From Ignavibacteriota bacterium (GTDB lineage: Bacteria; Bacteroidota; Ignavibacteria; UBA10030), in the NCBI GenBank assembly GCA_963701295.1, contig OY969585.1, positions 2,848,001 through 2,912,000 of the forward strand: a stretch of DNA of 64,000 nt. Direction: 5' to 3'. Below, piece after piece: positions 5,073-31,636 of this stretch (position 1 is the stretch's first letter; the number at the start of each line of letters is the position of its first letter). The notes below the pieces were generated by a model. That model saw only the letters and a list, made by a program, of their open reading frames with translations, did no database searches and was not told the DNA's origin. The translations under genes were made by a program, and so were the position numbers.

Positions 5073-5133
5073 TTCATATACATCCTGTACAGCACAACCT
5101 TAGTAGTTGCCAAAAACGGAGTGGTTCGTTCCT

Positions 5134-6120: not shown

Positions 6121-6147
6121 TCTCGTTTTTACAGCTCGCCTTTATGC

Positions 6148-7498: not shown

Positions 7499-7564
7499 TA
7501 CGATCTCCAATTATAGGGTGATGAGGAATATTTTCTTTTTAGATTTCTCGTTTAATAAGAAAGG

Positions 7565-9067: not shown

Positions 9068-9297
9068 TGAGTATCCTTTTTTGAGATAAATAAGTTTTTG
9101 CATTGCTGAACGAAATGATCATTCGATAGTATAGTAATACACTCCGGAAGAAAAATAGGTGCTTGTCTTGGTGCGAGCGTTCCTTCCTTACCCGGTGCTT
9201 TTGTACGATACTCTGCACCTTTGTAAGGTTTCTGTGCTGTTGGGATGTACGCACAAACCGATAGAACCGAAAGTGATATAAAGAATTGTTTTTTCAA
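9064..9297 (-). pseudogene. Short remnant resembling the N-terminus of a secreted GH16 beta-glucanase
   Basis: GGAGG at 9305-9301, TTG start, signal peptide, then KPYKGAEYRTK-APGKEGTLA, like the start of lichenase-type GH16 proteins with internal deletions. No catalytic motif follows. Confidence 0.4.
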
Positions 9298-9372: not shown

Positions 9373-10398
9373 TCAGAAAATTATACCTAAATCAATTTTC
9401 TGCACATACTTAAGACGGCCAAAATCCTGGTACGCGTAATCAAATGTAAATTGCAGATTACCAATCAGAAATTGCTTTACGCCCATACCGAGCGTGAGTC
9501 CTTCTTCTGAATCTTTTTGAAAGAGCGATTTCATTCCTGCTCTGAGATACAGAAAATCATAAAAAACGTACTCGCCTCCGACATTCATGCACTCGTAGTT
9601 ATCACTCGGATGCATTGCATCAGCTGCGAGCGTCATTTTTCCCAGTACGCCAATCGGAACATCATAGGAAATACCAACTCGGAAATTCAATGGTAAATCC
9701 CATTGGTCCGTTGCCAGATATGCCGGTATATTGCCGTTATTGCCTGTCGTTGACAAATCGGGGTCGTAAGAAACCAATGCATTTTCACCTTGTATTTGCA
9801 TCTTCGAGCCGAAGTTGGATATTGACATTCCAAGTATGATACCTTTAAATGGCGTTATGTATTTCACACCCATGTCAATTGCAATCGCACTTGCACTCAT
9901 TTTCCAAATTTGTTGATAGATAATCTTCGGAGTGAATCCTATCGAAAACGCATCAGTCAATTTCAAACCATATGTCAAACCTACAGCAAGGTCGGTAACG
10001 CTAAAAACTTCACCTGTTCCATCTTGTTGGTCGACTGTGGTCACCTTCATGTCTCCATAGTTAGAAACCGTAATATTCAAACCCAGAGCACCGTATGAAC
10101 CGAGAGATGTGGTAACACCGATGTACTCGTATTGAAGATCAGCAATCCAACTTGTATGGTCAATTAGCACTTGTATTCCTTGCAAATCAGCTATTCCTGC
10201 AGGGTTCCAATACATCGCACTTGGATCGTCCGCAATTGCTACAAAGGCGCCTCCCATGCCAAGGGCCCGCGCACCTTGCGCAATGGATAGAAATGGTGCA
10301 GCTGTGGTACCGCGTTTTGAGACGTCGCTCGTTTGTGCGGTTGTAAGCGCGCTGTAGAAGAAGATCAGTATTAGAATGCATTCAATTCTCATTTTCAT
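9373..10398 (-). CDS. PorV/PorQ (UPF0164)-family outer-membrane beta-barrel, copy B
   Basis: GTTAAPFLSIAQGARALGMGGAFVAIADDPSAMYWNPAG signature, amphipathic strands, FDYAY, terminal Phe. Translationally coupled to the upstream gene. Confidence 0.85.
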   Translation of the reverse strand: MKMRIECILILIFFYSALTTAQTSDVSKRGTTAAPFLSIAQGARALGMGGAFVAIADDPSAMYWNPAGIADLQGIQVLIDHTSWIADLQYEYIGVTTSLGSYGALGLNITVSNYGDMKVTTVDQQDGTGEVFSVTDLAVGLTYGLKLTDAFSIGFTPKIIYQQIWKMSASAIAIDMGVKYITPFKGIILGMSISNFGSKMQIQGENALVSYDPDLSTTGNNGNIPAYLATDQWDLPLNFRVGISYDVPIGVLGKMTLAADAMHPSDNYECMNVGGEYVFYDFLYLRAGMKSLFQKDSEEGLTLGMGVKQFLIGNLQFTFDYAYQDFGRLKYVQKIDLGIIF

Positions 10399-10406
10399 AA
10401 AATACC

Positions 10407-13400
10407 TCACTTTACTACTGCGAATTTACCGATATACTGACCAATGCCAGGTGCATCGACATGGAAAATATAAAGACCATACGCAATATCCATTCCGTCA
10501 TCCGACACGAGATTCCAAGACATAGAGCCATCCATGGGCGATGTATTCTTGTAGAGTGTCTTCACGAGAGCACCAGCAATCGTATAAATCCGTATTGTAC
10601 ACTTCGCCGGTAGTTTCATGAATTGGATGAGACGATCACCACGGCCAGTTGAAAAAAGCGTACGAGATTCCCACTTTGCTGTGGCGAAATATGGATTGGG
10701 TACTACTGTTATTTGACTCAATTGGGTCTTCGCCGCACCATTATCTGTTCGAGAAGCAATCATCTTAAACAAAAAATAATCGCCTGAAAGAAATGGTCGG
10801 AATGTTTTGATGGCGAAACGATCTCCTGGTTGCGGCTCTTTGATCACCCCAAACGGTCTACCATAAGAAATCTTCCACGTCCATTTGAAGTTCCTATTGT
10901 TCACAACTTGATCAATAATCCGGATTGTATCTCCCACGGTTAATGTGCCGGAGGTATCCATGTCCTGAACGATGAACTTCGCTTGAACCCAATTGCTAGA
11001 AGTATCCTTCTTGAAGATGTGGAACTTAACCGGCATTCTTGGATAGGTAGGATCTCCCAATGAAAATGCAGAAGTATCCACAAATGTGTTGTACCATCGT
11101 ATTTCATAATCTGCCGGCCATGCGACTCTATTAGTAGATATAAAATCTTGCGCTACAAGAATCCTCACATTGCTTGACCCAACAACCCAGCCTGTACCAG
11201 CATCATTCACCGCAATCGAATCGTTCAGCACAGAGAGAATCATGCCATCAAACGGGAGCGTAATCTTGCCATTGCCTATGCTCGCCGTATCCGCACCAAG
11301 GATCAACGTATCCGTGACATTGTTGCGGGTTCTATAAATATCGAACGACTTTGTATGATAAATCGGTATGGTCGTATCAGACTTGAATTTTACTATATAT
11401 TGATCGCCATCCTGGATTTGCGCAGGATTTAGGATTGTCAACCTCAGGCTACCTGTTCCTAAACCCTGAGCTACGTGATCCATATCTCCGTTCGTTTGCG
11501 GTGGCAGATAACCCGCGGCCGGTTTCTGGGGCGTGACAACAGCACAATTGATGTCAACGAACTTGATATTCCCAGCATAATCCTGTGAAATGATTTTTGA
11601 GCATTCTGTTGGCTGCAACGGTTTTCCGTTCGGTGTCGGTCCTCCTTTCGAATATGAACACACAGCATAATAATACCGAACACCATTTGTAACTGTTGAA
11701 TCAATATACGAATGTTGCAAACCATTATTCGAACCGCGCCAGAACCGTGCACCGTTAATACCGACTGGATCCGGCCCTGCAATGCTGTCCACAAGATCAA
11801 ACTGTGCAATCGGCTTATAGTATTTAGGATTACCCTGGGAATCTGTAATTTTTTTGACGTCGTCAAATTCCGGTTCCTCACTTCGATAGATCGTATATCC
11901 TTCGAAACTCTTAAAATATCCCTGTGCAGGATCACCGTTTTGATAACCGTAGAAGCGATCCGTTGATGTTTCTGCGATATTATCCCAAAAAAGAGAAACC
12001 TTTTTATCGCTCGGAACCGCTGTAAGATGTGGGGTGTAGGGTGGTTTCGTGAATCGGTAGTTCGCATTATAGATATCTTGTACTGTTACTTTGTTGAAAA
12101 TGAGCGCATCCAAATTATCACCAAAAATAAGCGCCATAGAAAATCGCTCCCGTTTTGTCTGCTTCAGAGGGAAAGGACCAGAAGCAAACACCATTTGAAT
12201 ATTTGAGTTCTCGACCGTTGTGTCACGGAAGCCATTATTCATAGCATTCCACATTACCTCATCGTTACTTATCCATAACCCGGTTGGACCGTGAGTTTGA
12301 TCAAGGATTCTGATTGTCATTGCTGTCAATCCTATCATATCCGATTCGCCTATATCGGTCTCATCAAAATCCGGTTCGCCGTGTGTAGGTATACCGTCAC
12401 CTTCCCCTTCATCTGGTCCTGTGTAATTTAGGTCCGAAGGGCCAAGACCGTCTCGACCAACATCATCATTCAGTGGTTCGCCCGGGTCCCACTTACCATT
12501 ATGGTTCAGGTCGGTGTACGGGATCCAATTATGGTTGTCATCAATATTATTGTCACGACGCTCGTCGACCAATCCATTTAGATTATTATCGATTCCGTCA
12601 TAAGGATTTCCTGGACTTTCGAGGTAGGCGTATCCTATATAACCAGCCACGTAATTGGTAGCGCTTTGCGTTCCTTGACCGCACGTAGGGCACCACGCAT
12701 AAGTCAAGGCGAGAGATTGTCCTGCCCCATGCGTGCTCCTATCGAATAATGCGCTGTTACCTGGAGTGTTTGTTCCTCCTACGCCCGGATCTGTATAAAA
12801 ACCAAAACAGGTTGAATCATAATCATGGTCAGATATGTTCACGATATCATAATGCCAGAAGATGCAATCTTCCGCCAGGACGTGAGTCCATTGAAATCCA
12901 CGTACCTCTACCCGTAGACCAAGTCCTCCTCTGTCTGAATCAGAAGCAATCGGATAATAGTTGAATGGTGGACGCGTCCATTTTTTGTCTTTTGAATCAT
13001 CCATAACAAAAAATGTTTCAAAATCAGCATTCGAAACCCCCAATCCAAAATAGCCGTACCAATACCCATTCCATGCTGGTGTGAGACCAAGTGCAGCAGG
13101 CCATATCGGTGGAAAGGTTGAAGGATCTCTATTCACTGCAGGACTTTGAGAAGATGGATTTGCATAACCGGGAATGGGCTGCAATACCCACTCCTCGCCA
13201 GTCAAGGGATCTTTGCTGACAACTTCTCTGTAAGCGGAGACTAATGGAGTGATCGTTTGACCATTCGGCGCTATAATCTTCGCAGCGATCAACACGGCGG
13301 TTCCATCTAGATATGAATGTCCTGTGCCTTTTGGCCATTCAGCCGATGGTTCATCGGGCCAGTGTCCAACTTCTCCGTCATTTATGTAGACAGTTGAGAT

Positions 13401-13871
13401 GCGATTTCCATCCATAACACTTTTTTTCCGGTACTGAACATTGCCTTTCGGTTCATTGCGATACGCTTGAGTTTTTGCGTCAACGACAGACCCTGCAAGC
13501 CCAAACCCAATTACTTGCAGCGAATCTGGCGATGTCTGATCATTGCTCGTAACAATGAGCCACGCTGAAACGAGACCTGAGTGTGTGGGAATAAAATGAA
13601 TGGTATCAATGTATGACAATGCAGGTGCAATGGTGAACGCCATTTGATTCACTGAAAATTCTGGTTGGGTAAAATTGAGATTCGTAATCTTCAACGTATC
13701 AGTCCCGATATTCGCAATCAATATTGTAGTCTCATTCAGATGCGAATATTCGCCGACTCTCACATCTCCAAAATCAATCGATTGCGTGTTGAATGTGAGT
13801 TTCGGCTGTCCAAAAGCGAAAGTGAATCCCAGTGAGATTAAAATTGGAATAAGCGTTTTTTTTCGAAACAT
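10407..13871 (-). CDS. Large secreted protein (1154 aa): Ig-like N-terminal domain, Asp-rich Ca-binding repeats, FN3-like domain, variant T9SS-like C-terminal domain
   Basis: Signal peptide; IDFGDV...IANIGTDTLKIT (ASH/choice-of-anchor-D-like); DGIDNNLNGLVDE / DLNHNGKWDPGEP / GEGDGIPT repeats; FEGYTIYRS...YIDSTVTNGVRYYYAV; C-terminus ITVVPNPY...IQFMKLPAKCTIRIYTIAGALVKTL...WNL...GLYIFHV...GKFAVVK. Confidence 0.75.
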   Translation of the reverse strand: MFRKKTLIPILISLGFTFAFGQPKLTFNTQSIDFGDVRVGEYSHLNETTILIANIGTDTLKITNLNFTQPEFSVNQMAFTIAPALSYIDTIHFIPTHSGLVSAWLIVTSNDQTSPDSLQVIGFGLAGSVVDAKTQAYRNEPKGNVQYRKKSVMDGNRISTVYINDGEVGHWPDEPSAEWPKGTGHSYLDGTAVLIAAKIIAPNGQTITPLVSAYREVVSKDPLTGEEWVLQPIPGYANPSSQSPAVNRDPSTFPPIWPAALGLTPAWNGYWYGYFGLGVSNADFETFFVMDDSKDKKWTRPPFNYYPIASDSDRGGLGLRVEVRGFQWTHVLAEDCIFWHYDIVNISDHDYDSTCFGFYTDPGVGGTNTPGNSALFDRSTHGAGQSLALTYAWCPTCGQGTQSATNYVAGYIGYAYLESPGNPYDGIDNNLNGLVDERRDNNIDDNHNWIPYTDLNHNGKWDPGEPLNDDVGRDGLGPSDLNYTGPDEGEGDGIPTHGEPDFDETDIGESDMIGLTAMTIRILDQTHGPTGLWISNDEVMWNAMNNGFRDTTVENSNIQMVFASGPFPLKQTKRERFSMALIFGDNLDALIFNKVTVQDIYNANYRFTKPPYTPHLTAVPSDKKVSLFWDNIAETSTDRFYGYQNGDPAQGYFKSFEGYTIYRSEEPEFDDVKKITDSQGNPKYYKPIAQFDLVDSIAGPDPVGINGARFWRGSNNGLQHSYIDSTVTNGVRYYYAVCSYSKGGPTPNGKPLQPTECSKIISQDYAGNIKFVDINCAVVTPQKPAAGYLPPQTNGDMDHVAQGLGTGSLRLTILNPAQIQDGDQYIVKFKSDTTIPIYHTKSFDIYRTRNNVTDTLILGADTASIGNGKITLPFDGMILSVLNDSIAVNDAGTGWVVGSSNVRILVAQDFISTNRVAWPADYEIRWYNTFVDTSAFSLGDPTYPRMPVKFHIFKKDTSSNWVQAKFIVQDMDTSGTLTVGDTIRIIDQVVNNRNFKWTWKISYGRPFGVIKEPQPGDRFAIKTFRPFLSGDYFLFKMIASRTDNGAAKTQLSQITVVPNPYFATAKWESRTLFSTGRGDRLIQFMKLPAKCTIRIYTIAGALVKTLYKNTSPMDGSMSWNLVSDDGMDIAYGLYIFHVDAPGIGQYIGKFAVVK

Positions 13872-13899
13872 ATCTAACTCCTAAATTCGAAATCTATTC

Positions 13900-16677
13900 T
13901 TAGTAATCGACTCTGAAACCAAGCCGCACCTGACGCGGGGCCACGAAACTCGTTGGATCATTTAAGTATTGCTGTATTGTATTCAAGCCGACAATGGCGC
14001 CCGCCTGATAAGTGTACAAATCGATATTCGCTCTACCGCTCGCAGAATTTACATTTACTTCATTTTTTGTATCGAGAAGATTGTAGATTAATGCGAAGAG
14101 GGTGAAATGAACGTCTGCGAGAGAAACAGACTTTTCGGCACTCATATCCACATTAAATGTAGAAGGTTTGAGTCCTCCGTTTTCAAAACGCAGACCGCCC
14201 GAAACGCGAGTATCTTCAGTATAGGGAAATCCTGATCCATACGAAAAAATGAGTCCGACGTTCCAATCCTGAGGTTTGCCCACTGTGAAAGACAAGTTGA
14301 GAGTCGAACGTTGATCCCAACTCAACGGAACTACGGTTTTGTTTGTTTCAATCGGTGGAGATGTTTGATTATTATAAAACACTGACAGGGGATCGGACGC
14401 ATCACCTGAAGCCAGTTGATATGTATAATCAAGCTTCACACCATAATAGTCTGCAAAGCGGCGATCAAGCGAAAGAACAAAGCCTTTCACATTGCCATAA
14501 TCACGATTTACATATCTGGCATATTCAAAACCTTCATAGGTTTGTATAATTTCTGTACCAAGTAAATTACGGATGTCGTTATAGTACACCGAAAAATCAA
14601 GACCGACATTAGTGAAAAGAACCTGTTGAAGACCGATTTCATACTTGGTAGTTCGTTGCGGTTGAAGGTCTGGATTTCCTGCAATTGTGTTGAGGGTACT
14701 CGATGGTGGAACAAGATAATCAGAGTTTGTATACAGGTTGTCGAAACTTGGTATTTGGAAAAAATGCCCATACGAAAAGTGGATTATCCCCTGATCAGTA
14801 ATCGGGAAAGAAATGCCAAGACGCGGGCTAAATTGAGTTTTTTTACTCGCAGCTTTCCAGACATCCGGAAAAGGAAATAGAGGATTCTTTGTCGGATTCT
14901 TTAAATCCATCGGATAAGACGAAGCCGGATCAAAATAATCAAACCGAATGCCAGCATTAATAATCATCATATCGTATTCGACTTTGTCCTGGACATAGGC
15001 AGAGAGTTCGTTAGGTTTTTTAAAATACTCCTGATTACCTGGAGCGCCAAGATTCGGATATCCCAGTTGAGGGATGGCTATACCGGTAATACTGTCCATT
15101 ACTGTCGAGTTTAGATTGATTAAAGATGTTGAATGTGAATAAATTTCATGCTCGCGCCATTCAAGTCCGACACCGATTTTTTGTTTATTTGTAATTTGCG
15201 AATTTAACACCCACTGGACTATTCCTGTTTTTGTATATCGATCATAGCGACTGGTCTGGTTGCCACCTGAACGAAATGTATATGCAGTACCACCGCCAGT
15301 AGGTTGTCCTTGTGCAGGATCAACATAACGCGGATCGAGCGGATCTTCGTAAAGGTATCCCTTATAATTATACCAATTGTAACCGAACTTCAGAGTTTGA
15401 TATGTATTGACCGTCGGGGAATAGGTGATTTGAAACGAGTGAATCCAATCAGTACGATAGTGATTCATAATACCGTCCGGGGTCCATGCAAATGAATGGT
15501 CATAGTACTTATTCCAGTTGTCATCCCACAGACCGTTATAAATGAATTTTAAAGTTCCGATGGAATAGGCTAGTTTGCCATTGAGAGAACGTCTTTGAGA
15601 CGGATTCATTGCAACATATTCTGGATTTCCGATAAGCGAAGAAACATCGGATGAGCTTTGAGGAATGTACTGTTTGCCCCTGACGGTATAGACATAGATT
15701 GGGTTGCCATCTGGATAATACAATGGAACTCCCTGATTGGTTTTCAATTGGTACGGTGTTATATCTGTGACATCATAGACTCGCTGACCATAGAGGTAAC
15801 CTCTATCCGAAGAGTACCTTCCTGTCACAAAAAAAGTCAAACTAGAAATGTACGGAATATAGCCGCTTAGACTTCCTTGAATATTTTTTATCCCGAGATT
15901 CTTTATACTACCATTATTTGGAAAGATATCAGTATGCGAAGTGGCATAGTTACCGGTATAAGCGGAAATGGAACCATGGTACGTCGATGATCCTTCAGAC
16001 GTAACAACGTTGACGATACCAGACATTGCTTGGCCGTATTCTGCATTGAATGTTCCGCTGATGACTTCCATTTCACGAACTACCGAGTTGTCGATTTGCA
16101 GAGGCATGGAGCCATCGTAGGGATCGTTGACTGCAACTCCGTCAACTAAGTACGCTACTTCGCCTGAACGGCCGCCACGGAAATGACCACCAACAACTCC
16201 TGCCTGGATACTAATAACCTGGGAAATATTCTCTGTGGGAATGCGCTTCAATTCCTCTTCCGATACCGTCACAGAGGACGATGTGAGATCTTTTTGCACG
16301 AGAGGCCGCTCGGCCATAACGACCACATCACTTGTCTGAATCGCTTCCGAACGAAGTTTGACATCGATCTTTGTTGTCAAATCGATTTTCACAATAACAT
16401 TTGAGATAGTCGTCTTGCGATAGCCGACGAAACTGACTATAATAGAATATTCTCCCGGTGGTATGTTGTTAATGGTGTAAAAGCCATCCAAATCGGTTAC
16501 AGTGCCAAGTGACGTTTCTTTAACAAGAATGTTAGCAGTTATTAAAGGGTCATTGTTCGCCGCATCTGTCACACGACCAGCAATTTTGCCTGTCTGACCT
16601 GCTTGTGCCATTGCCGGAAAAAGGAGGAATGACACAACAAGGAGATGACCTAGTACATTGCATACAGTCTTCGACAT
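13900..16677 (-). CDS. TonB-dependent receptor (carboxypeptidase-regulatory-like N-terminal domain, non-SusC type), copy B
   Basis: TGKIAGRVTD...GTVTDLDGFY...VSFVGY; plug HFRGGRSGEVAYLVDG, ISGTFNAEYGQAMSG; SPRLGISFPITD...FSYGHFFQ; ends PRQVRLGFRVDY. Confidence 0.92.
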   Translation of the reverse strand: MSKTVCNVLGHLLVVSFLLFPAMAQAGQTGKIAGRVTDAANNDPLITANILVKETSLGTVTDLDGFYTINNIPPGEYSIIVSFVGYRKTTISNVIVKIDLTTKIDVKLRSEAIQTSDVVVMAERPLVQKDLTSSSVTVSEEELKRIPTENISQVISIQAGVVGGHFRGGRSGEVAYLVDGVAVNDPYDGSMPLQIDNSVVREMEVISGTFNAEYGQAMSGIVNVVTSEGSSTYHGSISAYTGNYATSHTDIFPNNGSIKNLGIKNIQGSLSGYIPYISSLTFFVTGRYSSDRGYLYGQRVYDVTDITPYQLKTNQGVPLYYPDGNPIYVYTVRGKQYIPQSSSDVSSLIGNPEYVAMNPSQRRSLNGKLAYSIGTLKFIYNGLWDDNWNKYYDHSFAWTPDGIMNHYRTDWIHSFQITYSPTVNTYQTLKFGYNWYNYKGYLYEDPLDPRYVDPAQGQPTGGGTAYTFRSGGNQTSRYDRYTKTGIVQWVLNSQITNKQKIGVGLEWREHEIYSHSTSLINLNSTVMDSITGIAIPQLGYPNLGAPGNQEYFKKPNELSAYVQDKVEYDMMIINAGIRFDYFDPASSYPMDLKNPTKNPLFPFPDVWKAASKKTQFSPRLGISFPITDQGIIHFSYGHFFQIPSFDNLYTNSDYLVPPSSTLNTIAGNPDLQPQRTTKYEIGLQQVLFTNVGLDFSVYYNDIRNLLGTEIIQTYEGFEYARYVNRDYGNVKGFVLSLDRRFADYYGVKLDYTYQLASGDASDPLSVFYNNQTSPPIETNKTVVPLSWDQRSTLNLSFTVGKPQDWNVGLIFSYGSGFPYTEDTRVSGGLRFENGGLKPSTFNVDMSAEKSVSLADVHFTLFALIYNLLDTKNEVNVNSASGRANIDLYTYQAGAIVGLNTIQQYLNDPTSFVAPRQVRLGFRVDY

Positions 16678-16739
16678 AGTTGGTATACCTTCTCTTTTTT
16701 ACAACTTGCTTAGGGTCATTTTTTTTATTTTAATGATCA

Positions 16740-16774
16740 CGCGAGGCATTTCGAAAGCGTCAAAATACCTCGCG
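16740..16774 (-). promoter_or_regulatory. Intergenic stem-loop with no U-tract (mRNA-stabilising or attenuating hairpin)
   Basis: Minus strand CGCGAGGTATTTTGA-CGCTT-TCGAAATGCCTCGCG, 10 nt after the stop of 16785..19316. Confidence 0.5.
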
Positions 16775-16784
16775 TTGAATTGTT

Positions 16785-19316
16785 TCACTTCAGCAGGAGT
16801 AATTTATGCGTAGCCCCAAACGAACCAGATTCCAGACGATAGAAATAAACCCCGCTGGAAAAGCTTTGTCCCGCCGTGTTGAAGGTCACAGTATAAGTGC
16901 CGGCAACCTGATTTTCATCGACCAACGTCGATACCTCACGACCTAGCATATCGTATACCTTCAGAGAAACATTTCCAGGTTTTTCTATGCTGTACTTAAT
17001 TTTTGTCGAAGGGTTGAATGGATTGGGATAGTTCTGCGAAAGCGTATATTTTACAGGAACAACACTCACCTGTTCCACGGAGACCGTTGGCGTCATCAAA
17101 TTACCAATCCACGTATACGTCCAATGCCACATATCTTGGTACGAGTTGTCATTATTCAACGGGGAATAACACAGCATTCCGTCTCTGAAATCTGCGGCAG
17201 TCTTGTTGTCCCGATCATTGATCTCGAAGTCAATTGGAATTCTCATACCTTCCGCTGGTACAAAAAGCTTATCACCCGACCTGGCTTTGGTGAACGCCGT
17301 AAACGGAATTTTTGCCTCCACGGTATAACCCGAACCAATAATCTTTTGGACCCATGCATAGTCCGGGTTGGGATTCATACCATTCGAATATGCGTACATC
17401 AATGTAACATTTAAACCGTCAAGTCGAACCCGATTCTGGGAGAAGCGAATATGATAATCTGGCTTTACGCCACCGGGCAGTCCGCTATGGAACTTGCCTC
17501 TCCAGTCATAGAGACCGATAAAGAGATCAGGGGCATCCTGTTCGTAGTCAAGTGAGGAGGCAGTATCAACTTTAACCACATCATCGGTCACATCAAACGC
17601 TACATAGAGGTAGTTTGCATCTACAGCCAAGTAGGCCTTGGCAGAGCAATCAGCGTCATTGTCAATAACACCGTTCTCATTCACATGAGCAGTCCCAGAA
17701 TCCTTCGAAATGAGAAATGGTTTGATTCCTGCCGATATCCACTCTGAAAGATCCCCATCAGCAGCGAAGTTTGTTGGCGGAGCTTTAGCAATGGTTGGGA
17801 CACCTTTGGCCAACGTTGTAATAGGACCCTTTAAAGAGGTGCCGCTCAGATTACCTGATACATCTTTTGCCTGGACACCATAATAATAGGTCAGTAATTG
17901 GTTGGTGTTTGGTGCACGAAGAATGTGTGTAACATTGAGTGCTTGAATATTATATGGTGGTATATCCTCGACAGTTGTGTCGGTTGGATCCGTCCACGGA
18001 TGATCAGCGACATAGACATTGTAGGTCACATTGGGTTTGTTTGTGACCGCATTCCAACTAAACACATTCGAGAACGTGCTGGATGCTACGTTAAGTCCTG
18101 TCGCAGAATCCGGCGGAATCACATCAAGAATAGGATTACCCGTCCAGACGTTTGTTATCCAGATCATTTTGCCGGCGATCCCACTGTTTTCAGTCATAAA
18201 CTGGAACACTGTAATAGCAGAAGAATCAAAAGCATGACCCGCATTTTCGTCTATGAAACTCCTTAGTGGAAGAGAGTATTGATGCCATTGACCATCTTGG
18301 GACGGAGTGAATACAGAACCTCTTTTTCCGGCAGCAGCTGTTTCGAACTGCGCACGCAACGCTCCAGTCCCCACATCTACCTTCATCATAAAATTCAAAC
18401 TATCGACATGCCATGCTCCAGCAAGGTTTACAGGAGATTTAAGATTAGCTCCGCCTCCTCCCCAACCGTTGACCTGCACCATCTGAATTGCATTGAGTTT
18501 GGGTGTAGGACCTGCCCCTGGTACAACACTCATAGTGACTCCAGACCACGTCCACAAGCTGCTCGGTTGCACATATGTACCATTGTAGTCCTTCCCTGTA
18601 AAGTAGACGAAAGGAATTGGTCGGTAACCAGTTCTCTCGAATTTATCAAACGATACTTCGATAGAATCTGCCGGAATATTTCCAGAAGCAACAGCGGGTG
18701 GGGGAGTTGTAACAAGAACAAGATACCATGCAACAATTTTATCCCGATCAAGTTTGTGATTATTCCATGTTAATCCGCCCCAATTAGAAGGAGCTACAAT
18801 AAAACCTGTGCTATCCGGGGCTTCTGAACCTGTTGATGGTCTTTCAATAATTGGTATACGAATATTTACCCAGTCCGAGGTAACATTATCAAGAATTCCA
18901 TCATTTTGGTAAATGTAAGTTTCTACAGGATCTCCTTGATTGGGTTGATCAAGAAGCTCCACACGAAATGACATCCATTGTGGATGTTGCGGTGCCATAC
19001 GAACCTTATACCAGAGACTAATTGTATCACTCGAACTATAATCCCATGGCGTATCACCAGTTTTTTGTGCAATCCCAAATTGAGAGAAAGTGCCCCAGGA
19101 ATATAACGAATCAAGCCTTGAACGCACCTTCATCGAAGACCAACCTTCCACCTTATCCGTTGAGTCGATTGAAAGGCGAATATAGCATTTCCCACCTCCG
19201 TTCGCCGTTGTGTATGTGGTGCCGGGGGCATTAAAATTATCAATTGTGTATACTTGTCCATACGAAGCAAATGATAATACTGCGATGGCAAGTGCGAGAA
19301 AAGGTAACATCCGCAT
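16785..19316 (-). CDS. T9SS type-A-sorted surface protein with CBM-like beta-sandwiches, FN3 and a CBM9-like sugar-binding domain (no catalytic domain evident)
   Basis: Signal peptide; ADGDLSEW...YLYVAFDVTDD...GYTVEAKIPF...IPIDFEINDRD (CBM9-like); C-terminus YTLSQNYPNPFNPST...KVYDMLGREV...SGVYFYRL...KLLLLK. Confidence 0.8.
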   Translation of the reverse strand: MRMLPFLALAIAVLSFASYGQVYTIDNFNAPGTTYTTANGGGKCYIRLSIDSTDKVEGWSSMKVRSRLDSLYSWGTFSQFGIAQKTGDTPWDYSSSDTISLWYKVRMAPQHPQWMSFRVELLDQPNQGDPVETYIYQNDGILDNVTSDWVNIRIPIIERPSTGSEAPDSTGFIVAPSNWGGLTWNNHKLDRDKIVAWYLVLVTTPPPAVASGNIPADSIEVSFDKFERTGYRPIPFVYFTGKDYNGTYVQPSSLWTWSGVTMSVVPGAGPTPKLNAIQMVQVNGWGGGGANLKSPVNLAGAWHVDSLNFMMKVDVGTGALRAQFETAAAGKRGSVFTPSQDGQWHQYSLPLRSFIDENAGHAFDSSAITVFQFMTENSGIAGKMIWITNVWTGNPILDVIPPDSATGLNVASSTFSNVFSWNAVTNKPNVTYNVYVADHPWTDPTDTTVEDIPPYNIQALNVTHILRAPNTNQLLTYYYGVQAKDVSGNLSGTSLKGPITTLAKGVPTIAKAPPTNFAADGDLSEWISAGIKPFLISKDSGTAHVNENGVIDNDADCSAKAYLAVDANYLYVAFDVTDDVVKVDTASSLDYEQDAPDLFIGLYDWRGKFHSGLPGGVKPDYHIRFSQNRVRLDGLNVTLMYAYSNGMNPNPDYAWVQKIIGSGYTVEAKIPFTAFTKARSGDKLFVPAEGMRIPIDFEINDRDNKTAADFRDGMLCYSPLNNDNSYQDMWHWTYTWIGNLMTPTVSVEQVSVVPVKYTLSQNYPNPFNPSTKIKYSIEKPGNVSLKVYDMLGREVSTLVDENQVAGTYTVTFNTAGQSFSSGVYFYRLESGSFGATHKLLLLK

Positions 19317-19345
19317 GATAAATCCTCCTATTTATTGGTTATGAA

Positions 19346-20899: not shown

Positions 20900-20925
20900 T
20901 GTACAGTAAAATTAAATTTGATATA

Positions 20926-21603
20926 TTATATTTTCAGTTTGAATTCAATCCATTCGTAATTCATGTTTCCATTTGCAACCGTATGGAGCGTGAGGATGTG
21001 AATACCTTTTTGCAATTCAACTTGCGCTAAAGTAAATGCAAGATTCCAATGATGCCATTGCCTCCATGCAACAGTGTCTCTCTCTTGGTGTGTAGATGGA
21101 ACGAGTAGCGGACCTGAAATATCTTTTCCATCTATTGAAAGAGATATAGTGCCATTTCCGTTTGCAGTATACATAAGGCCGACATCATATTTTCCCGTTT
21201 CATTTACTTGTACCGTATAATTAATCCACTCGCCAGGCACGGTCCATCCCACATACAATTGTCCCATAAGAGGTTCTGTAAGATTATATTTATTATCGTC
21301 TATATCTCCAGTTTTGGTGTAGGAAATATCAACTCCTTCCTTCATACGAAATTCATTCAGAAATGTGCCGTTCGCAGGATTGAGTTTCCCACTTCCATTG
21401 TTGACCGAATCATTATCATGATAGGCGATTCCTTCTCCACCTGTATCATAAAGCGCGCACTGAATTTTACCAGGAATTTGCTGAGGATGGTCATTCCAAG
21501 CCTTACCTTTGTATTTCTCCTGTGAGAAAGTTTTGGGGGAACAAAACATAAAACCTGTAATTAATAGCAGGCAAAAACTACAAAAATTGATGTTTTTTCT
21601 CAT
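20926..21603 (-). CDS. Exported CBM6/CBM35-like carbohydrate-binding protein
   Basis: Signal peptide; IPGKIQCALYDTGGEGIAYHD, EGVDI, VGWTVPGEWINYTVQV, GNMNYEWIEF. Confidence 0.75.
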   Translation of the reverse strand: MRKNINFCSFCLLLITGFMFCSPKTFSQEKYKGKAWNDHPQQIPGKIQCALYDTGGEGIAYHDNDSVNNGSGKLNPANGTFLNEFRMKEGVDISYTKTGDIDDNKYNLTEPLMGQLYVGWTVPGEWINYTVQVNETGKYDVGLMYTANGNGTISLSIDGKDISGPLLVPSTHQERDTVAWRQWHHWNLAFTLAQVELQKGIHILTLHTVANGNMNYEWIEFKLKI

Positions 21604-21795
21604 GAATATGATACTTTGAGTTAAGAAAGGTTAGTTATGAACACATAGAGCTTACCTGCAATGTCATAAATGGTGACGCGTTGAGTTTGTTTTCATTCGT
21701 TTCTTTTTCTCTTAAAAAATTATTTCTTCCAAAACAGTTTTTAAAAGTATGATAGGTTTCATCAAAATTTTAATACCTCGTGTCTGAGAGAACCA

Positions 21796-23016
21796 TCACC
21801 TACTATAATAAGGGGCACCAGAATTACCCATATCAATTGCCACTATTGAGGGGTCACTTGACATAACACGTTCATAAAGAATATTACCTGTCCATGTTAA
21901 CCCACCAACTGCGGTTGTAATAAGATTTTTATACAATGGGCGCATTCCTGTGACCGTACCCGTGCTGTAGTAGACCAACAAAATGGGATCGACACTTTTA
22001 TCGGTAGCAATGTACATATTACCGTTAGCGGAAAAGGTCAAATCTTTAACCTTTGAAGTGGCATAATCACCGCTCGTGCTCCACAGTAATACCTGTTCTT
22101 GTGTTCCTAATGTGCCACCCGAAATTTGATGACGATAAACACCAGTGGTGGTTCCTCCTACAGCTAGAACATAAACATAATTTTGAAAAACGCGTACAGC
22201 CAAAATATTATAATTGACATAAGAAGGTCCTTTGGCCACTGAGGTTGCTTGAACGATATCTATGGTTTTATTTGTCCCTGATGTTCCCCCTGCATAAATA
22301 ACTCCATTTTGATCAAAGTCGAAACATGTCATATTTTCAAGAAAGCCGAATAATTTGGTTAGATTACCTCCTCCGCGTGCAACGGAATGAAATTCTCCAT
22401 CACTTCCCGTCATCAGTGCGTATAATGTCCCATTCGGCACAATCCGCATACAAGAAATTGTTAAACTGGTTGAATATGTAGCATAATCGCTCATTATCCC
22501 ATTTGTCGAAATTTTACGAATTACTTTATACGTTCCGGTACTGTCACGAGCACTAATAACCGCTACGTATACATTGCCAGAAGTATCAGAGGCAATAGTA
22601 TTCGAGAGTGTAGAACCGGGAAATGTACCAAGCGGTGTTACAACTCTTTTTATTTTATATTTTATTTGGGCAACATCATCAGCAAGCTGAACAACAACTC
22701 TTGTAGAAATAGTTTCACCGTAAGTTAACGGCCTGAGCATTACAATCTGATTCGAAGTAAAATTGGTGATAATACCAGGTTCTATTCCAAAATAGACAGA
22801 GCATTGATCCACAGTAGTCCCAAAATTACTTCCATTGATCGTGATATCAAGAACACCACCAATTGCACTATCCGCAGGAGAAATGCTCGTAATGACAGGG
22901 GATGCGACAGGATTTGCCGCTGGCGGCCAGCCCGGCGGAATAATATTATCAACGCACCCCGAAAGTAGAGCTACGATGATTACAAATGTAATAATAATAA
23001 ATATATTTTTTTTCAT
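21796..23016 (-). CDS. Lipoprotein with IPT/TIG domain and probable beta-propeller
   Basis: Lipobox LLSGC; PVITSISP...ITINGSNFG (IPT); blade-like repeats DTSGNVYVA, PNGTLYA, DQNGVIYA, SANGNMYIA; GAGGAG upstream. Confidence 0.75.
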   Translation of the reverse strand: MKKNIFIIITFVIIVALLSGCVDNIIPPGWPPAANPVASPVITSISPADSAIGGVLDITINGSNFGTTVDQCSVYFGIEPGIITNFTSNQIVMLRPLTYGETISTRVVVQLADDVAQIKYKIKRVVTPLGTFPGSTLSNTIASDTSGNVYVAVISARDSTGTYKVIRKISTNGIMSDYATYSTSLTISCMRIVPNGTLYALMTGSDGEFHSVARGGGNLTKLFGFLENMTCFDFDQNGVIYAGGTSGTNKTIDIVQATSVAKGPSYVNYNILAVRVFQNYVYVLAVGGTTTGVYRHQISGGTLGTQEQVLLWSTSGDYATSKVKDLTFSANGNMYIATDKSVDPILLVYYSTGTVTGMRPLYKNLITTAVGGLTWTGNILYERVMSSDPSIVAIDMGNSGAPYYSR

Positions 23017-23030
23017 GTTTAATCTCCTCA

Positions 23031-24035
23031 CTATATCTTTAATCTTACCGTAATGCGCTGAATGTCATCGAAATATTTCATCGGTGTGTACGCATAATCT
23101 ATTGCAAGGCCAAACTGCGATACGCCAACTCCATAACTGAATTGTTCTAAATCAGCGTGCGAGTTATAGCCTAAGCGGAAGGAGATCGTATTCATAAATG
23201 TATAGTTTATGCCTATTAAAAGTTGTTCCGGGTACGAACGATCATGTGTTAAATCGACCGACACGATCAAGCTTTGATCTTCCTTAGCTTTTTCCCAAAA
23301 ATCCATTACATCCATGGAAACACCGAGAGTAAAAAGAAGCGGCATTTGAAACGATTCCTGTTCATACGTTAGCTGTCCGGAAAAGTGACGAATAGATATT
23401 CCAAACGAAAGACTCTTGAGTCCAGTTTTAAAAAGGGTACCAAAGTCAAAAGCTATCGGATTCATCTTAAAAGAAGTCTTTACCGTGCTGGAATCCCTGA
23501 TGTCAATGCTTGTGGGAACATCGCCATCTCCCAAACTCTGGTGAACATATTTTATCTGACCTCCGACGGAAAACTGATCGGTCAATTTATTAGCATAGCC
23601 GATGCCCGCGCTATAGGCTTGCAAAGAAAATGTACCTAAATACAGAAAATTATCATTATTATTGTACACTATGGTTCTATAAAAATCACCATAGTTTACA
23701 TCCTGTACTGATACACCAACAATGCCCCATGAACCCAAATTAACAGCCGCGCTAAATTGCGTATGTTTAATATCGGCGATCCATGGGTTATAACTTGCCG
23801 ATACTTCTGCGGTATTTTTCATTTCCGTTAAGCAGGCGGGGTTGAAAAAAAGTGAACTCGAGCCCATTGGCAGTGTGTTAACTGCACCAGCCATTCCGGC
23901 TGCTTTTGCATCTGAAATAACACTCAAGAAATCAAAACCGGTTTGCGCAAGTTTGACATTATCTTGAGCAATGCTGCCATTTCTCATAGATATAAGAAAG
24001 ACAAGCTCAATGAAAAGAATTATTCTTATTTTCAT
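23031..24035 (-). CDS. PorV/PorQ (UPF0164)-family outer-membrane beta-barrel, copy A
   Basis: KLAQTGFDFLSVISDAKAAGMAGA...SLFFNPA, WIADIKH, IDYAYTP. Confidence 0.85.
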   Translation of the reverse strand: MKIRIILFIELVFLISMRNGSIAQDNVKLAQTGFDFLSVISDAKAAGMAGAVNTLPMGSSSLFFNPACLTEMKNTAEVSASYNPWIADIKHTQFSAAVNLGSWGIVGVSVQDVNYGDFYRTIVYNNNDNFLYLGTFSLQAYSAGIGYANKLTDQFSVGGQIKYVHQSLGDGDVPTSIDIRDSSTVKTSFKMNPIAFDFGTLFKTGLKSLSFGISIRHFSGQLTYEQESFQMPLLFTLGVSMDVMDFWEKAKEDQSLIVSVDLTHDRSYPEQLLIGINYTFMNTISFRLGYNSHADLEQFSYGVGVSQFGLAIDYAYTPMKYFDDIQRITVRLKI

Positions 24036-24060
24036 AACATTTATTCCTCAGATTAATTTG

Positions 24061-26315
24061 TCAACGAATTACAACAAATTTTCTGTATATGGACTTACCA
24101 CTACTTGTTTGAAAATGAGCAATATATATCCCGCTTACGATCGTTTGACCGTATGTTGTTTTTTGATTCCAATGTTCGTCTCCGCTCCCATTCGTATGTT
24201 CCATCTGCCATATCAGTTCTCCACGCTCAGTGAATATCCGGATAGTACACCCTTCCTTCGGTAAATTCACAAACGCGATTCTATCCTGGTCAAAACCTTG
24301 GTTGGCAAGCGTCGGATCAAGAGTCAATCCCCACTGTAGTTTTCTGGATCTTACGATATATGGATTGGGAACTATATAGATAGAATCCATTCCGGATTTA
24401 CCCTCTTTAAGCAAATAAGCACCCTCCTCCGTTTGGGTTAAGAACTGACTACTTACCAAAGGAACACCCGGTTCAATCGTATTAGTCGAGCCGTCATCTT
24501 TGCTCTGGATGTAGTAAAAATATTCTGTGGCACGCGCTACTGCGGTATCAAGATATGTATCGTTAGGATACGATTTATCACATTCCCATATTTTCTTGTA
24601 TACCGTTATATCATCATATACACTTCCGGCTGCACGATATATCACAAATCCGTTGAAATGAGCTGATGCTCTGGCTTCACTAGCTGTCCACGAAAGCTGA
24701 ATGCCATTAGCACTAGAAGTTACATTAAATTGCGCAGGCGCCGGAGGCGGTTGAAGAGCATGGTAGTCGGAATTATATAAATCTATTGCTCTTTGGAACA
24801 TTCTTTGGATTGAGTAAGGCTTCGTGGAGTCTTCAATAGAAAATACCCATGCGTCTTTGTATTGGTTATAAGGTGCGGCATCGATTTTATATTTAGTATA
24901 AACTGGGTTAGCACTGACAAGTGAGCTGGTACCGATACTGACACCAGAGGGCATCGTGAATGCCGGTGTAACTCCGCCTGAAGGATTATACCCTGCATAC
25001 CAATTATTTGAAACCACGCGATTCGAATCTCGATCGAGTCCCGTTACTCCTTCGGCTAAAACAATATGAATACTATCGCCGGGGGCAAGCTTGTATGGTC
25101 CGAAACCCTGTATTTGCCCTGGACCGGCAGTACTACCTTGCAGCATTGTTTTTGAAAATTGATCTGCGCATGTTGCGCTACTTGCAACAAACTCATCCGC
25201 ATAGCTCTTCGGATGAAGTCCTGTATTTCCGCCAAGACTCATAAATTTATACCATCGAGCCATTGAAGTTTCATCATAAGGCGGGCACGCATAATCTAAA
25301 GGATCATCCGCATTGATATATGCCGTATTCATCGGTTGAGTTTTATCGTCACTTTGATCATGCGCCGATTTATCAGCATGGAGCGTAACACAACCTACAT
25401 ACCGCGCAGCAGCAAGCACGCTTCCAGATTGATACGGATTAGGACATCCCCAGTCATCCAGGACTTTGTTGTCCCCACTATGAGGACCATAATACCCATA
25501 CAGCGCTCGATATTTAAAGTCCGCACTCGTTGGGTCTGTGCCCATAACCTGAACTAATGTATTAACTCCCCAGCGCGTACTTTGTGCCGACCAACCAACA
25601 ACAGGAAAATTAGAACTTGCTACGGCTTCTCCAGCAAGACTATACCGATATTGGAATAGAAATAGACAACTATCAAGAGTCTGAGGTACCACTGTTCCTG
25701 CTACATTAATAATTCCCGTGTTTTTGAAAACATAATCGTAGATAAAGAAATTATTATTGTATTGATTGGGAAAAACCATAATCTTTCTCGTCATCGTTAT
25801 TCCCATCGGAGTATTAATCGTATTGACGATCATTCGATCTGCCTGCATGGTGGGGTCTATCTCATCCAACTTATCATAAAGACCCATTGTCGCATTGGCA
25901 ATTTTTCCATCGACGGTTACCACGGGGTGATTATATTTTCCTATATATTTAAACGGTTGAGTAAGTGCGTTGAGACCGTCATAGCTCCCTGAGCGAGGAC
26001 CGAGTGTCAGCACTTTGTATTTGAAGGGTAGTTTGCTAACAGGATCTATGAAATTTTGACAGCCGATCCATAAGCCTTTCGCCCGTACAGAACAAGATTT
26101 TAATCCATACGCAGCAGGCCAGACATAGGCCGGTCCATAAAGGGGGTTTCATCGCTTTCCGTTTCAGTGCCATAATCTGTAAAATATGACTGGATATTAC
26201 TAAAACGTATCCACGCTCTTAAACCCTGTGCTTTCACAGAAACTGTGGAAAGAACTACAGCGATAAAAACAAAAATTAAAAATAAAAGTATATTACGTCT
26301 CATAAACAGTTTCAT
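24061..26315 (-). CDS. Large secreted protein (~750 aa) with FN3-like domain and variant 'IVPNPY' C-terminal domain (apparent -1 frameshift at ~26140)
   Basis: GGAGGAG SD and signal peptide in ORF 26100..26336. Adding one base in the CCCCCTTT run gives ...YGPAYVWPAAYG...AKGLWIG... in frame with ORF 24061..26013. PPPAP-FN3; C-terminus IYIVPNPY...IAFVNLP..CTIRIFTERGELI...WNQ...SGIYIAHF...RKFVVIR. Confidence 0.75.
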
Positions 26316-26332
26316 GGAATTTTCTCCTCCAA

Positions 26333-29300
26333 TCATATTTTAAACGATAGCTTCATTCCGAAAAATATTTGCCGTGGATTCAAAAATGTGAATGACGTTA
26401 AATTGGGCATATCGATATACGCCTTGGTGCTCAAAATTTTATCCATTCTTGCTTTATCAACTTCCACCCATTGACCATTCGTAACCTCGTTATACGTCGC
26501 TGTTTGTGCACCATAATAAATTGTTCCCGCAATCACACTGGAAATAGGCGGTAAAGAACTCACCCATAATACAGGTTGATAATCAGCACCATTTGCTCTA
26601 TAGTCACCGATTCTATCATTTCCCGGTACGTTATTATATACATCGCTTTTAGGAAGATGAAGAGATTCCATATATGAATCTTCGTCGGCAGTACCAGAAA
26701 ATGAATTCATATTCATCTTTTTGTAATTCAGAACATTATACACATCGACAAACAACTCGACGTTTACAGTCCTCAAATCAAAGGCCTTGCTAAATCTTAA
26801 TTGGACGTCACAGTTATCTGTGGTTTGCACATTATTGTTTATTCCATATCTACCGAACGGATTATAAGTGGTATACGAACCCGCTTGCCAATTGAATTGC
26901 ACATTTAACAAAAAACTACCCAACGGTATAAAAGAGCCCCAGTGAGGACCAAAATCCTCAGGAGTAAATAAACTGATGTTCACTCGAGCATAAGGACTGG
27001 GAACGGGCACTTGTTGGTACGACTTATCTGTTTGTGCAGCATAATTTGTTTGATCTGTGACATTCTCATATTCGAAATTATTGCCAAACCAACCTCCAGA
27101 AATCGATTGATATGTGTAGTTTGCAAATCCCGTCCAAAACTGACCGCTAGTCTTTCGTAAAGAAATTTCAAGGCCACGAACATCCTGCATAACCAGAACT
27201 TATGGGCTGAGCGTACCCATTGAGGTACCCATAGGTACATACGTAACAGTAAGTGTATTTCCATTGATATCGAGCTGATCATTTGTGATATCCCGATAAA
27301 ATGCGCTTATTTGGAGAAGAATATTATCACCTAAGTAATGATCATACCCGAGCTCGTAGGCAACAGTTTTCGCCAGAGTTTGATTTGGATTACCGAAGTT
27401 TGCAACTTGTCCAGATGATGAGCGGCCTATAGCATACATATTTTCGTATGACGGCATTTGCATAAAATGTCCGTAATTGAAATAAAGTTTTGAGTTTTCT
27501 GTAATTGGATGTGCAATACCGAGGCGTGGACTAAATTGCCATTGTGGTTTTGATCGGGTAAGAGGTACTTCCGAAGTTGCATTGGGTCCAAAAAACGACA
27601 CAGAGAATGGATTACCAGTGTACCAATCCGTCTGAGGATCGCTATAATCCACCCTGAATCCTAAATTAGCAACAAATCCATTTGTCTCTAATTTATCCTG
27701 GATATACATACCTGCTCTGATGGGGTAAACACGCATTAGAATACGGTCTTGATAGGATAGACCGTCACTTAATGCATAAACTTGTCCATAATCAAAAGAC
27801 AAATCGTTATAAACAAATTCTATTCCTGTTTTGAGTAAGTTCTTGAAGTCAATCTGACTTGTAAAATCTGCCTTCAACGATGTTGCAGATACTTCACTAT
27901 GGTCCCGATACAAACATTCGGAACCTCCAAACTCAAGCCCCGTTGGCCCCATTGTTTTCATGGTAGCATATCCGTATGGCTCTTCATTGACAAAGAAACC
28001 ATTCACAATTTGATAAACCGAATCCATGTTCCGTCCCGCCGAAGGTTCGGAAAGGTACGATCGCGTTATTCGCTCGAGTCTAATTTCATAATATGATGTT
28101 GGAGAAAGGAATTGAGTTACATCTCCCGAAATTGAGTTATATGATATTTCAGACGGGCTGAAATACGCTGTATTAAAGAGTCCAGTTTGACCATAGCCTG
28201 CAATTTGATCAGCTACTTGCTGCGGAGTCGTGATATAGAGACCGCTAGCCCAGTTTTGAGCCAGCGTGAAAGGCCAGTTTTGAGCTTGCGAATATTGTTT
28301 ACCAGAAAAGAATGCTACGGCCAACTTCAAGGATTTTGTCAGGTCTGAGTTAAATCGCACGTTCCAGTCCCAATTCACATTATCGTCTCGTGTCAATGGA
28401 ACCAAGAGCGTTACGTCTTGTCTACGGTAGGTACTAAAGAAACGAAGATCGCCTAGATACTTATCAATAAAAGGTACCGGACCGCCAAAACCTGCATCAA
28501 CATCATAATCGGGTTGGGCAACTGGTCGTCTTCGTGTATCGAAAAGAAATTGCTTTTGTAGCGCCTCTGGAGAAAGATATGTAGAACCAACCGTTGTATT
28601 TCTTTCCTGTGATACCGTATTCCATCCCTCCCAATTTGGATATGAAGCTTGAGTATATGTATCCCAAGCACCATTACTCGTACCTGTCCAACAAACTGCG
28701 GGATCTAAATACGGCCGTAGCCAATAAGAATTTTTATCAAACGGTGATATACCCATAGCTTTATATTGGTACGGGCTAGCGCGAACAGTCGCTGTCGCGG
28801 TATAGTGTGATTTATCTCCCTCTTTCGTAATCACATTGACGATGCCGGAGCGAACCTGGCCATATTCGGCATTAAACCCACCGCGTTCTATAGAAACTTC
28901 TTTAACAGAACTCATCGCAATCGATGAAATAGGGCTATTATTCCGTGGATCACGGAGTGATATACCATTAACCTGAAACAATGCATCACTCTGGTCTCCA
29001 CCACGGATTTGCATATTTTCCTTTACACCGGCTTGAGTCTGAATAACCGACAGCATATTTGAAACGGGCAGTTGACTAATTTCATCACTACTCACTGTAA
29101 CAACGGCGGCAGACACATCGGGTTTGATAAGCCTTTCCCCATAAACAATTGTTTCTTCAACTTGGACATCTTTTGCCTCGAGGGTGACATCGACGCGTGC
29201 TGTTTGATCAATGTAAACCCTCACATCAGTCATGACAATTTTTCTATAACCAACGCAAGAGATTTGAACTTGATATATTCCCGGAGGAACGGACAATATA

Positions 29301-29500
29301 GAATATTCTCCACTCATATCTGTAGAAACACCAAGAGATGTACCGAGGACGATGACATTAGCTTCCATGATAGGTTCACCGTTTAATTTATCGGTAATCG
29401 TCCCTGCAATTTTTCCTGTAGTACCTGCTATCCCAATCACAGATAAAGAAAACAGCCCTAATAATAAGAGCAATGTCAGAAAAAGAAATCTACTTTTCAT
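26333..29500 (-). CDS. TonB-dependent receptor (non-SusC type), copy A; in-frame TAA at 27200-27202 explained by two compensating indels
   Basis: TTGKIAGTITD, QIRGG, ERGGFNAEYGQVRSG, SPRLGIAHPITE; ends NPRQIFFGMKLSFKI. ORFs 27200..29581 and 26333..27190 share a frame, and a local -1/+1 shift reads YAQPISSGYADVRG, matching YARYVNRDYGNVKG of copy B. Confidence 0.88.
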
Positions 29501-31621: not shown

Positions 31622-31636
31622 ATCTCTCTGTCATTC

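Follow-up and report, generated by a model that had tools for sequence, protein, structure and literature searches.

The window analysed here, a stretch of 64,000 nucleotides from contig OY969585.1 of an Ignavibacteriota bacterium, contains two minus-strand gene runs, hereafter triads A and B, in each of which a TonB-dependent transporter (the receptor) is followed by a large signal-peptide protein (the cargo) and a barrel gene of the PorV family. The receptors are not SusC, SusD has no match in the genome, the gene order is conserved, the three partners have co-diverged, each cargo has a dedicated PorV-family protein, and the cargo tail has a PorZ-like predicted fold. On balance, we lean towards the view that the triad takes up glycans without SusD and that its cargo would be kept on a private barrel as the glycan-capture partner of the receptor; its contact with the receptor and its sugar binding are the parts that we infer. 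The module is real, conserved, broadly distributed and apparently unnamed.

Results

Triad A (29500-23031) comprises the receptor (26333..29500), cargo A (24061..26315) with a signal peptide, a predicted beta-supersandwich, an FN3 domain and a C-terminal domain with the motif IVPNPY, and a PorV/PorQ-family barrel (23031..24035), separated by gaps of 17 and 25 nt. Triad B (16677-9373) is uninterrupted; it consists of an intact receptor of 925 amino acids (13900..16677), cargo B of 1154 amino acids (10407..13871) and a PorV/PorQ-family barrel of 341 amino acids (9373..10398), the genes being spaced by 28 and 8 nt. In cargo B the signal peptide is followed by a choice-of-anchor D Ig domain, a predicted beta-supersandwich with an Asp-rich insert, FN3, one or more further beta domains and a C-terminal domain with the motif VVPNPY. 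An earlier interpretation made from the DNA letters alone (the sequence-only reading) had described one triad occurring twice. Its gene order, coordinates and short spacing were borne out when the open reading frames were read again; however, the two triads belong to distinct types (A to type II, B to type I), triad A is interrupted, and the VVPNPY tail ascribed to both cargos is found in cargo B while cargo A reads IVPNPY. Profile matches between cargos A and B are confined to the C-terminal domain.

Both receptors exceed the cut-offs for the plug (PF07715) and the beta-barrel (PF00593) and also contain a CarboxypepD_reg domain; the plug is present in all 45 aligned receptor relatives. With the SusC model TIGR04056, receptors A and B reach 88.3 and 58.9 bits, far below the cut-off of 368.25, which is passed by no gene of the genome. 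The SusC plug signature TIGR04057 was not found at the window receptors, with three weak matches elsewhere in the genome and a positive Bacteroides thetaiotaomicron control. The SusD models PF07980 and PF12771 have no match anywhere in the genome (3.64 Mb, 99.3% complete, with TonB genes), and their positive control was matched. Neither cargo A nor cargo B has a lipobox cysteine. The earlier claim that no SusD-like lipoprotein follows the triads thus stands with regard to SusD, but a lipoprotein (21796..23016, minus strand) with a lipobox, an IPT/TIG domain and a likely beta-propeller does follow triad A, and it is the fourth gene in all five type II triads of this genome.

With NF033709, the model of the PorV/PorQ family (cut-off 90), the third genes score above threshold at 211.9 (B) and 178.5 (A) bits, and they fail the canonical PorV model NF033710 (cut-off 250) with 81.3 and 71.7 bits; barrel B also matches the PorV structure 6h3i (E 1.7e-11). 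Hence, the hidden Markov model scans suggested by the sequence-only reading (TIGR04056, the SusD Pfam families and the PorV family) agree with its statement that the receptors are not SusC, both failing TIGR04056 and lacking the TIGR04057 signature, detect no SusD, and place the third genes in the PorV/PorQ family. Regarding the tails, the type A models TIGR04183 and PF18962 have no match in either window cargo, while PF18962 labels occur on some distant type II relatives. Likewise, the type B models TIGR04131 and PF13585 for the tail and PF11751 for the barrel are not matched among the window cargos or barrels; the genome-wide searches with TIGR04131, PF11751 and GldL were run without a positive control and carry no weight. 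The only domain match of cargo B is the choice-of-anchor D Ig domain, and cargo A weakly matches the PorZ tail. By sequence, the cargo tail is weakly similar to the PorZ and PorU tails (E 0.15 and 0.22). No Pfam enzyme family was matched in any cargo scanned, no DUF560 barrel or TbpB-like cargo was matched by Pfam among the triad proteins, and no PDB sequence reached an E-value under 0.05 when searched with the type I profile.

The genome contains ten triads: four of type I (cargos of 1150-1290 amino acids), five of type II (about 750-870 amino acids) and one that stands apart. Fourteen genes exceed the NF033709 cut-off; ten of them are the third gene of a triad and another one is the canonical PorV, which lies beside PorU and has no adjoining receptor. 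A profile built from the ten triad receptors scores these at 924-1287 bits and the next protein at 158, and the corresponding tail profile gives 108-139 bits followed by 31; the high scores are circular, being those of the proteins from which the profiles were built, and the result is that no orphans exist outside the triads. The predicted dedication of one PorV paralogue to each cargo is thus supported by a one-to-one pairing of receptor, tail and PorV in the ten triads. The triad that stands apart (L008:2983-11302; C1:2006970-2015301) represents a third type and is located directly after rpoA and rplQ, outside any sugar locus, with a DUF4397 lipoprotein before and a GWxTD protein after it and a short extension on the cargo tail. 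One type II cargo (L006:2998-5604) carries inserted CBM5/12-like repeats ahead of its tail, which hints at the acquisition of glycan-binding modules by cargos. Outer-membrane proteins with CarboxypepD are encoded at three other places (C1:599255-602335, 2443149-2446265 and 76565-79444) and are each followed by a type A C-terminal domain protein without a PorV gene, and it is possible that they represent a second kind of receptor-cargo pair.

The triad order is conserved far beyond this genome. Alignment of type I with GTDB genomes confirmed at least 490 stretches, and 79 loci were kept among the matches listed; loci cut by contig ends were excluded from the counts, the remainder being called testable. 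Among the matches listed, the type I cargo has the receptor upstream at 71 of the 72 loci testable on that side and PorV downstream at all 63 testable for it; all 59 loci testable for both carry the two partners. The record titles name Ignavibacteriota, Kryptoniota, Calditrichia, Neomarinimicrobiota, KSB1, Rhodothermales, Gemmatimonadetes, Eisenbacteria, Krumholzibacteriia, WOR-3 and others. The type II cargo occurs in 32 of 121 genomes of the phylum, and its 29 loci from other genomes have the receptor upstream in 28 of 28 testable cases and PorV downstream in 28 of 29; the named relatives include Balneola, Gracilimonas and Rhodothermales. Taking both types together, a receptor adjoins the cargo in 99 of 100 testable loci. 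The survey of the triad order proposed by the sequence-only reading hence found it conserved across many lineages. At one locus (L030) an extra gene is inserted ahead of PorV.

The partners have also diverged together. In 86 triads chosen by their cargo alone, the types of the receptor and of PorV equal that of the cargo in all 86, while shuffling gave 49 on average and 66 at most. Two partners choose the same paralogue of our genome in 33-41 of the 86, against a mean of 18-20 and a maximum of 27-31 after shuffling. When 97 PorV-family proteins were placed in a tree, with barrel A in the type II clade and barrel B in the type I clade, all 61 type I proteins group together, with weak support (0.66), and so do did all 30 type II proteins (support 1.0). 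The Mantel correlations among the three partners are 0.65-0.81; kinship alone can yield such values, therefore the case for co-phylogeny rests on the match at the type level. Since both types occur within one genome, this match does not reflect species descent alone, and the pairing is older than the species and was kept through duplication.

The cargo structures were predicted, with the fold of cargo A taken from its intact type II paralogue L005. The models reach pLDDT (predicted local distance difference test) values of 90 for this paralogue and 78 for cargo B, and both are mainly beta, with FN3 after the supersandwich and without a helical catalytic barrel. Their cores resemble the beta-supersandwich at the N-terminus of GH15, GH94 and GH116 enzymes at about 10% identity, with Z 18.6, a root mean square deviation (rmsd) of 3.4 and 255 aligned residues for type II, and Z 20.6, rmsd 3.1 and 266 aligned residues for cargo B, for which the matches came from Foldseek with re-alignment. 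In those enzymes the matched domains are non-catalytic. The tail of the type II paralogue resembles the PorZ tail (5m11; Z 11.9, rmsd 2.5, 88 aligned), and 5m11 appears at rank 4 of the fold matches of cargo B. PorZ and PorU keep their tails on the PorQ and PorV barrels. SusD is not among the listed fold matches of either cargo. An Atlas search with the cargo B core returned unnamed clusters only (best 0.95). The core of each type contains invariant Asp, Arg, Gln and Trp residues. The Asp-rich insert of cargo B (residues ~420-515, window 12330-12620) is conserved in type I cargos, is modelled with low confidence and may bind calcium. Complex prediction for receptor B residues 382-925, lacking the plug and first strands, with cargo B residues 147-601 gave 0.00 in two control-free runs against a mark of 0.32 and weighs neither way.

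Export of the cargo via the T9SS (type IX secretion system), as assumed earlier, is supported by the presence of SprA (C1:3470808-3477765, frameshifted near its end in the assembly), neighbouring PorV and PorU genes (C1:2968861-2974103), of which this PorV is the canonical one, and a PorZ-like gene, but not by GldM and GldN. The latter two have no match in this genome, while 29 of the 121 phylum genomes match, though divergent forms could escape; within that sample no match was found in families of this genome's class. The export route therefore probably differs from the T9SS studied so far. A type A-like tail motif is present in 92 open reading frames of the genome.

The genes around the triads, all on the minus strand, point to beta-glucan. 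Downstream of triad B lie a GH30 enzyme, a GPH-type transporter of the major facilitator superfamily (MFS), a GH17-like protein and a GH149 beta-1,3-glucan phosphorylase (1549..9103); GH149 exceeds its equivalog cut-off and GH30 and GH16 exceed their Pfam cut-offs, whereas the GH17 match stays below (24.5 vs 28.2). Between the triads are a type A C-terminal domain protein with a CBM9-like domain (16785..19316), a relative of which is found upstream of the triad in loci L010-L019, a DUF362 protein (19346..20899) and a CBM6 protein with a signal peptide (20926..21603; PF03422, 36.8 bits). Upstream of triad A follow a solute-binding protein, a histidine kinase and a sigma-54-type response regulator (30161..34437) and a GH16 enzyme with a type A C-terminal domain (35398..36450). 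The locus was previously called a beta-1,3-glucan locus of carbohydrate-active enzymes, a description that rests on GH149 and GH16. Based on GH149, GH16, GH30, the MFS sugar transporter, CBM6 and the CBM9-like domain nearby, the likely substrate of triad B is beta-1,3(/1,6)-glucan. In L010, triad B is succeeded by these downstream genes as well. The block 19346-29500, comprising triad A, the lipoprotein, CBM6 and DUF362, does not occur at this position in L010 and L011; there, the regulator adjoins the CBM9-like gene, and by this comparison the block is a gained or lost cassette.

Elsewhere, the gene after the triad is related to glycans, sugars or the cell wall in 24 of 46 cases, 46 of the 51 listed neighbours being used after five distant or fragmentary ones were left out. 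After some type I triads (L039, L034, L045, L046, L052, L053) come genes for AnmK, BadF-type kinases or amidases, suggesting that the lineages concerned take up sugars of the cell wall. An unnamed protein of ~460-620 amino acids seems to recur beside type I triads (L001:6975-8480, L002:11538-13391, L003:8536-10272, L030:6882-8270, C1:2847364-2849226); one copy has weak peptidyl-prolyl isomerase matches, and the protein is possibly a chaperone or accessory part. A regulator set 63-68% identical to that at window 30161-34437 precedes another type II triad (L004:319-4411). The 500 nt upstream of the triad receptors show no sigma-54 promoter-like site in nine of ten cases, including those of triad A and L004, and sigma-54-like matches across the window are at chance level (17 vs 15.7). 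Scans for promoters and terminators did not rise above chance, and no RNA run was listed among the sequencing runs (all shares at most 0.14).

Discussion

Our data can be combined into a model of glycan uptake without SusD. The cargo would cross the inner membrane via its signal peptide and would then probably be exported through SprA on its own PorV-family barrel. By analogy with type B cargo on PorP/SprF and with PorZ on PorQ, the cognate barrel would pick up the cargo and retain it by the tail. FN3 could act as a spacer arm that sets the supersandwich over the mouth of the transporter, where it would make contact and catch oligosaccharides, here probably beta-1,3-glucan fragments. TonB-driven import might then be followed by MFS uptake and GH149 phosphorolysis, and in type II triads the IPT/propeller lipoprotein may serve as a fourth subunit. 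A broader reading, which we advance tentatively, is that a third class of T9SS tails with private PorV-family barrels forms a SusD-free transporter cap and the main means of glycan capture, served by a GldLM-free T9SS, in Ignavibacteria, Kryptonia, Calditrichota, Marinimicrobia, KSB1, Rhodothermia, Balneolia, Gemmatimonadota and related lineages.

Several observations weigh against the uptake model. The order has exceptions, namely one locus without a receptor upstream (L060), one with PorV upstream (L033) and one without PorV downstream (L094). One or two SusD matches are present in 13 of 41 related genomes, 5 of which also carry type I cargo; to call the triad a substitute for SusD is thus too strong as a rule. 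For type I only, there is a weak hint of avoidance between SusD and the cargo, with both in 5 of 41 genomes (p 0.08) and in 0 of 16 within the genus (p 0.03), the kin not being independent. The proposed role of the cargo derives from its predicted fold, and fold alone gives no function; moreover, types I and II share that fold without a profile match outside the tail. In 22 of 46 cases the downstream neighbour is not a sugar gene. Triad A, broken as assembled and missing at this position in L010 and L011, has a weaker link to beta-1,3-glucan. Finally, the genomes with GldM/GldN (29 of 121) and those with type II cargo (32 of 121) do not overlap.

Accordingly, other explanations have to be considered. 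The cargo could be an enzyme that represents a new family, fixed to PorV at the cell surface beside the transporter and processing the glycan before import instead of acting as a lid. GH174 fucanases and aldose epimerases, both among the fold matches, have supersandwich domains that are catalytic, and the invariant Asp, Arg, Gln and Trp of each core would fit this reading. However, the best matches are the domains that are non-catalytic in GH15, GH94 and GH116, no enzyme family was recognised in the cargos scanned, and one cargo family adjoins very different substrate loci (GH94, GH144-type, GH16, CBM20, amidases), which makes an enzymatic role rather unlikely. In another scenario, cargo and private PorV form a self-contained adhesin or substrate tether that is merely co-expressed with, and not bound to, a lid-less transporter of the Proteobacterial kind. 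The additional Ig domain and Asp-rich insert of cargo B, as in adhesins, and the relative without a receptor would fit this assumption, as would the type B pairs, which function without a transporter and for which TonB is not mentioned in the available parts of the respective papers (PMC9143113, PMC12618676). It is, however, improbable, given a receptor beside nearly every testable cargo and of matching type in all 86 triads, while the other glycan-related genes around the triad vary freely.

The mutually exclusive occurrence of GldM/GldN and type II cargo gives rise to a further idea, namely that the TonB-dependent protein serves export and provides force or a channel for cargo release in a T9SS without the GldLM motor. 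Release of the PorV-cargo complex from SprA requires energy (PMC10994853), and PopC is exported by Oar (cited in PMC8406197). Nevertheless, this appears very doubtful, because the split between GldM and type II cargo tracks lineage and is not independent evidence, the 92 type A-like tails and the canonical PorV without an adjoining receptor require another energiser, and the triad loci resemble sugar-uptake loci. It might also be argued that triad A is a true pseudogene set and that triad B alone functions in this strain. Two of its genes are interrupted, receptor A by an in-frame TAA at 27202-27200 and cargo A, which starts at 26315, by a frameshift near 26150-26100, and close relatives have no such cassette at this position. 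However, a relative's contig (run X1, ~93% alike) lacks three single bases (27188, 27222, 27224) inside 37 nt at the first break and two (26123, 26138) inside 16 nt at the second, a pattern consistent with local insertions in the window sequence; a second run (X3) also shows the difference at 27222, and the near-identical short contigs of run X2 do not span the breaks. SprA and two other cargos are likewise split in this assembly. Hence, judged from relatives, the interruptions are likely assembly errors, with true decay as the alternative; a pseudogene set is highly improbable and would have no bearing on what the module does.

The uptake model has a precedent for each of its links: SusC/SusD for a transporter with a lid, type B cargo with PorP for a cargo with its barrel, and Slam/T11SS (type XI secretion system) for all three together. 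With the SusC/SusD utilisomes of the polysaccharide utilization loci (PULs) of Bacteroidota (PMC7618045, PMC13543919) the triad shares a CarboxypepD_reg-like N-terminal domain on the TonB-dependent transporter, a surface partner directly after the receptor, location in glycan loci and many paralogous copies per genome. It differs in a receptor that fails both SusC models, in the constant presence of a third, dedicated barrel gene, and in a partner that is predicted to be mainly beta and has a signal peptide and a T9SS-type tail, whereas SusD is lipidated and helical. Cognate barrels encoded directly downstream anchor uncleaved type B cargo (SprB-SprF, PG1035-PorP; PMC9143113, PMC12618676). These pairs resemble the triad in the order of cargo and own barrel gene, in their cognate pairing and in the tail that probably acts as an anchor and stays uncleaved, while the triad has a PorV/PorQ-family barrel, no match to type B tails and a transporter in the unit. 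PorZ-PorQ and PorU-PorV share with it the PorZ-like tail fold and an anchor of the PorV/PorQ family, but are single housekeeping parts, and the PorU, PorV and PorZ-like genes of this genome sit elsewhere. PorV loops grip the cargo tails in the translocon (PMC10994853). The Slam/T11SS loci, such as hrpABC and TbpAB (PMC8406197), likewise combine a TonB-dependent receptor with a co-receptor and the dedicated outer-membrane barrel handling it, however, with an unrelated DUF560 barrel, TbpB-like cargo, a role in metal or haem uptake and occurrence in Proteobacteria.

Similar units appear to exist in cultured bacteria. The alginate locus of Rhodothermus marinus contains a tonB receptor (2805 nt), hypA annotated as T9SS type A (2181 nt), hypB as PorV/PorQ (1056 nt) and hypC (1398 nt), the order and sizes of which fit a type II unit (PMC9530828), a membership inferred from annotation, not sequence. 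In its xylan locus, a receptor is listed together with two hypothetical proteins, the first bearing a Por tail, beside a separate SusC/SusD pair (PMC6987092), a run similar to the triad, again by annotation instead of sequence. In their available text both papers give annotations only and propose no module. The module goes unmentioned in the available parts of the Caldithrix genome paper (PMC5317091) and of a 2026 transporter review (PMC13543919), the latter without any occurrence of PorV, type IX or T9SS. No description was found in the open-access full text that the search covered; in this literature, this combination of parts is undescribed.

The triad could become important for the annotation of glycan utilization. 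The prediction of PULs relies on SusC/SusD pairs (PMC13543919), hence triad loci are missed across many lineages that are abundant in sediment, soil and marine environments, and the triad provides a marker for finding such loci and for reading the substrate from the neighbouring enzymes. The finding also leads one to ask what powers a T9SS in which GldM and GldN are not detectable. As cultured R. marinus appears to carry such units, the idea is open to testing. If it is true, the triad would represent a second and independent way in which a TonB-dependent transporter is capped, and would add a class of T9SS tails with cognate anchors of the PorV family.

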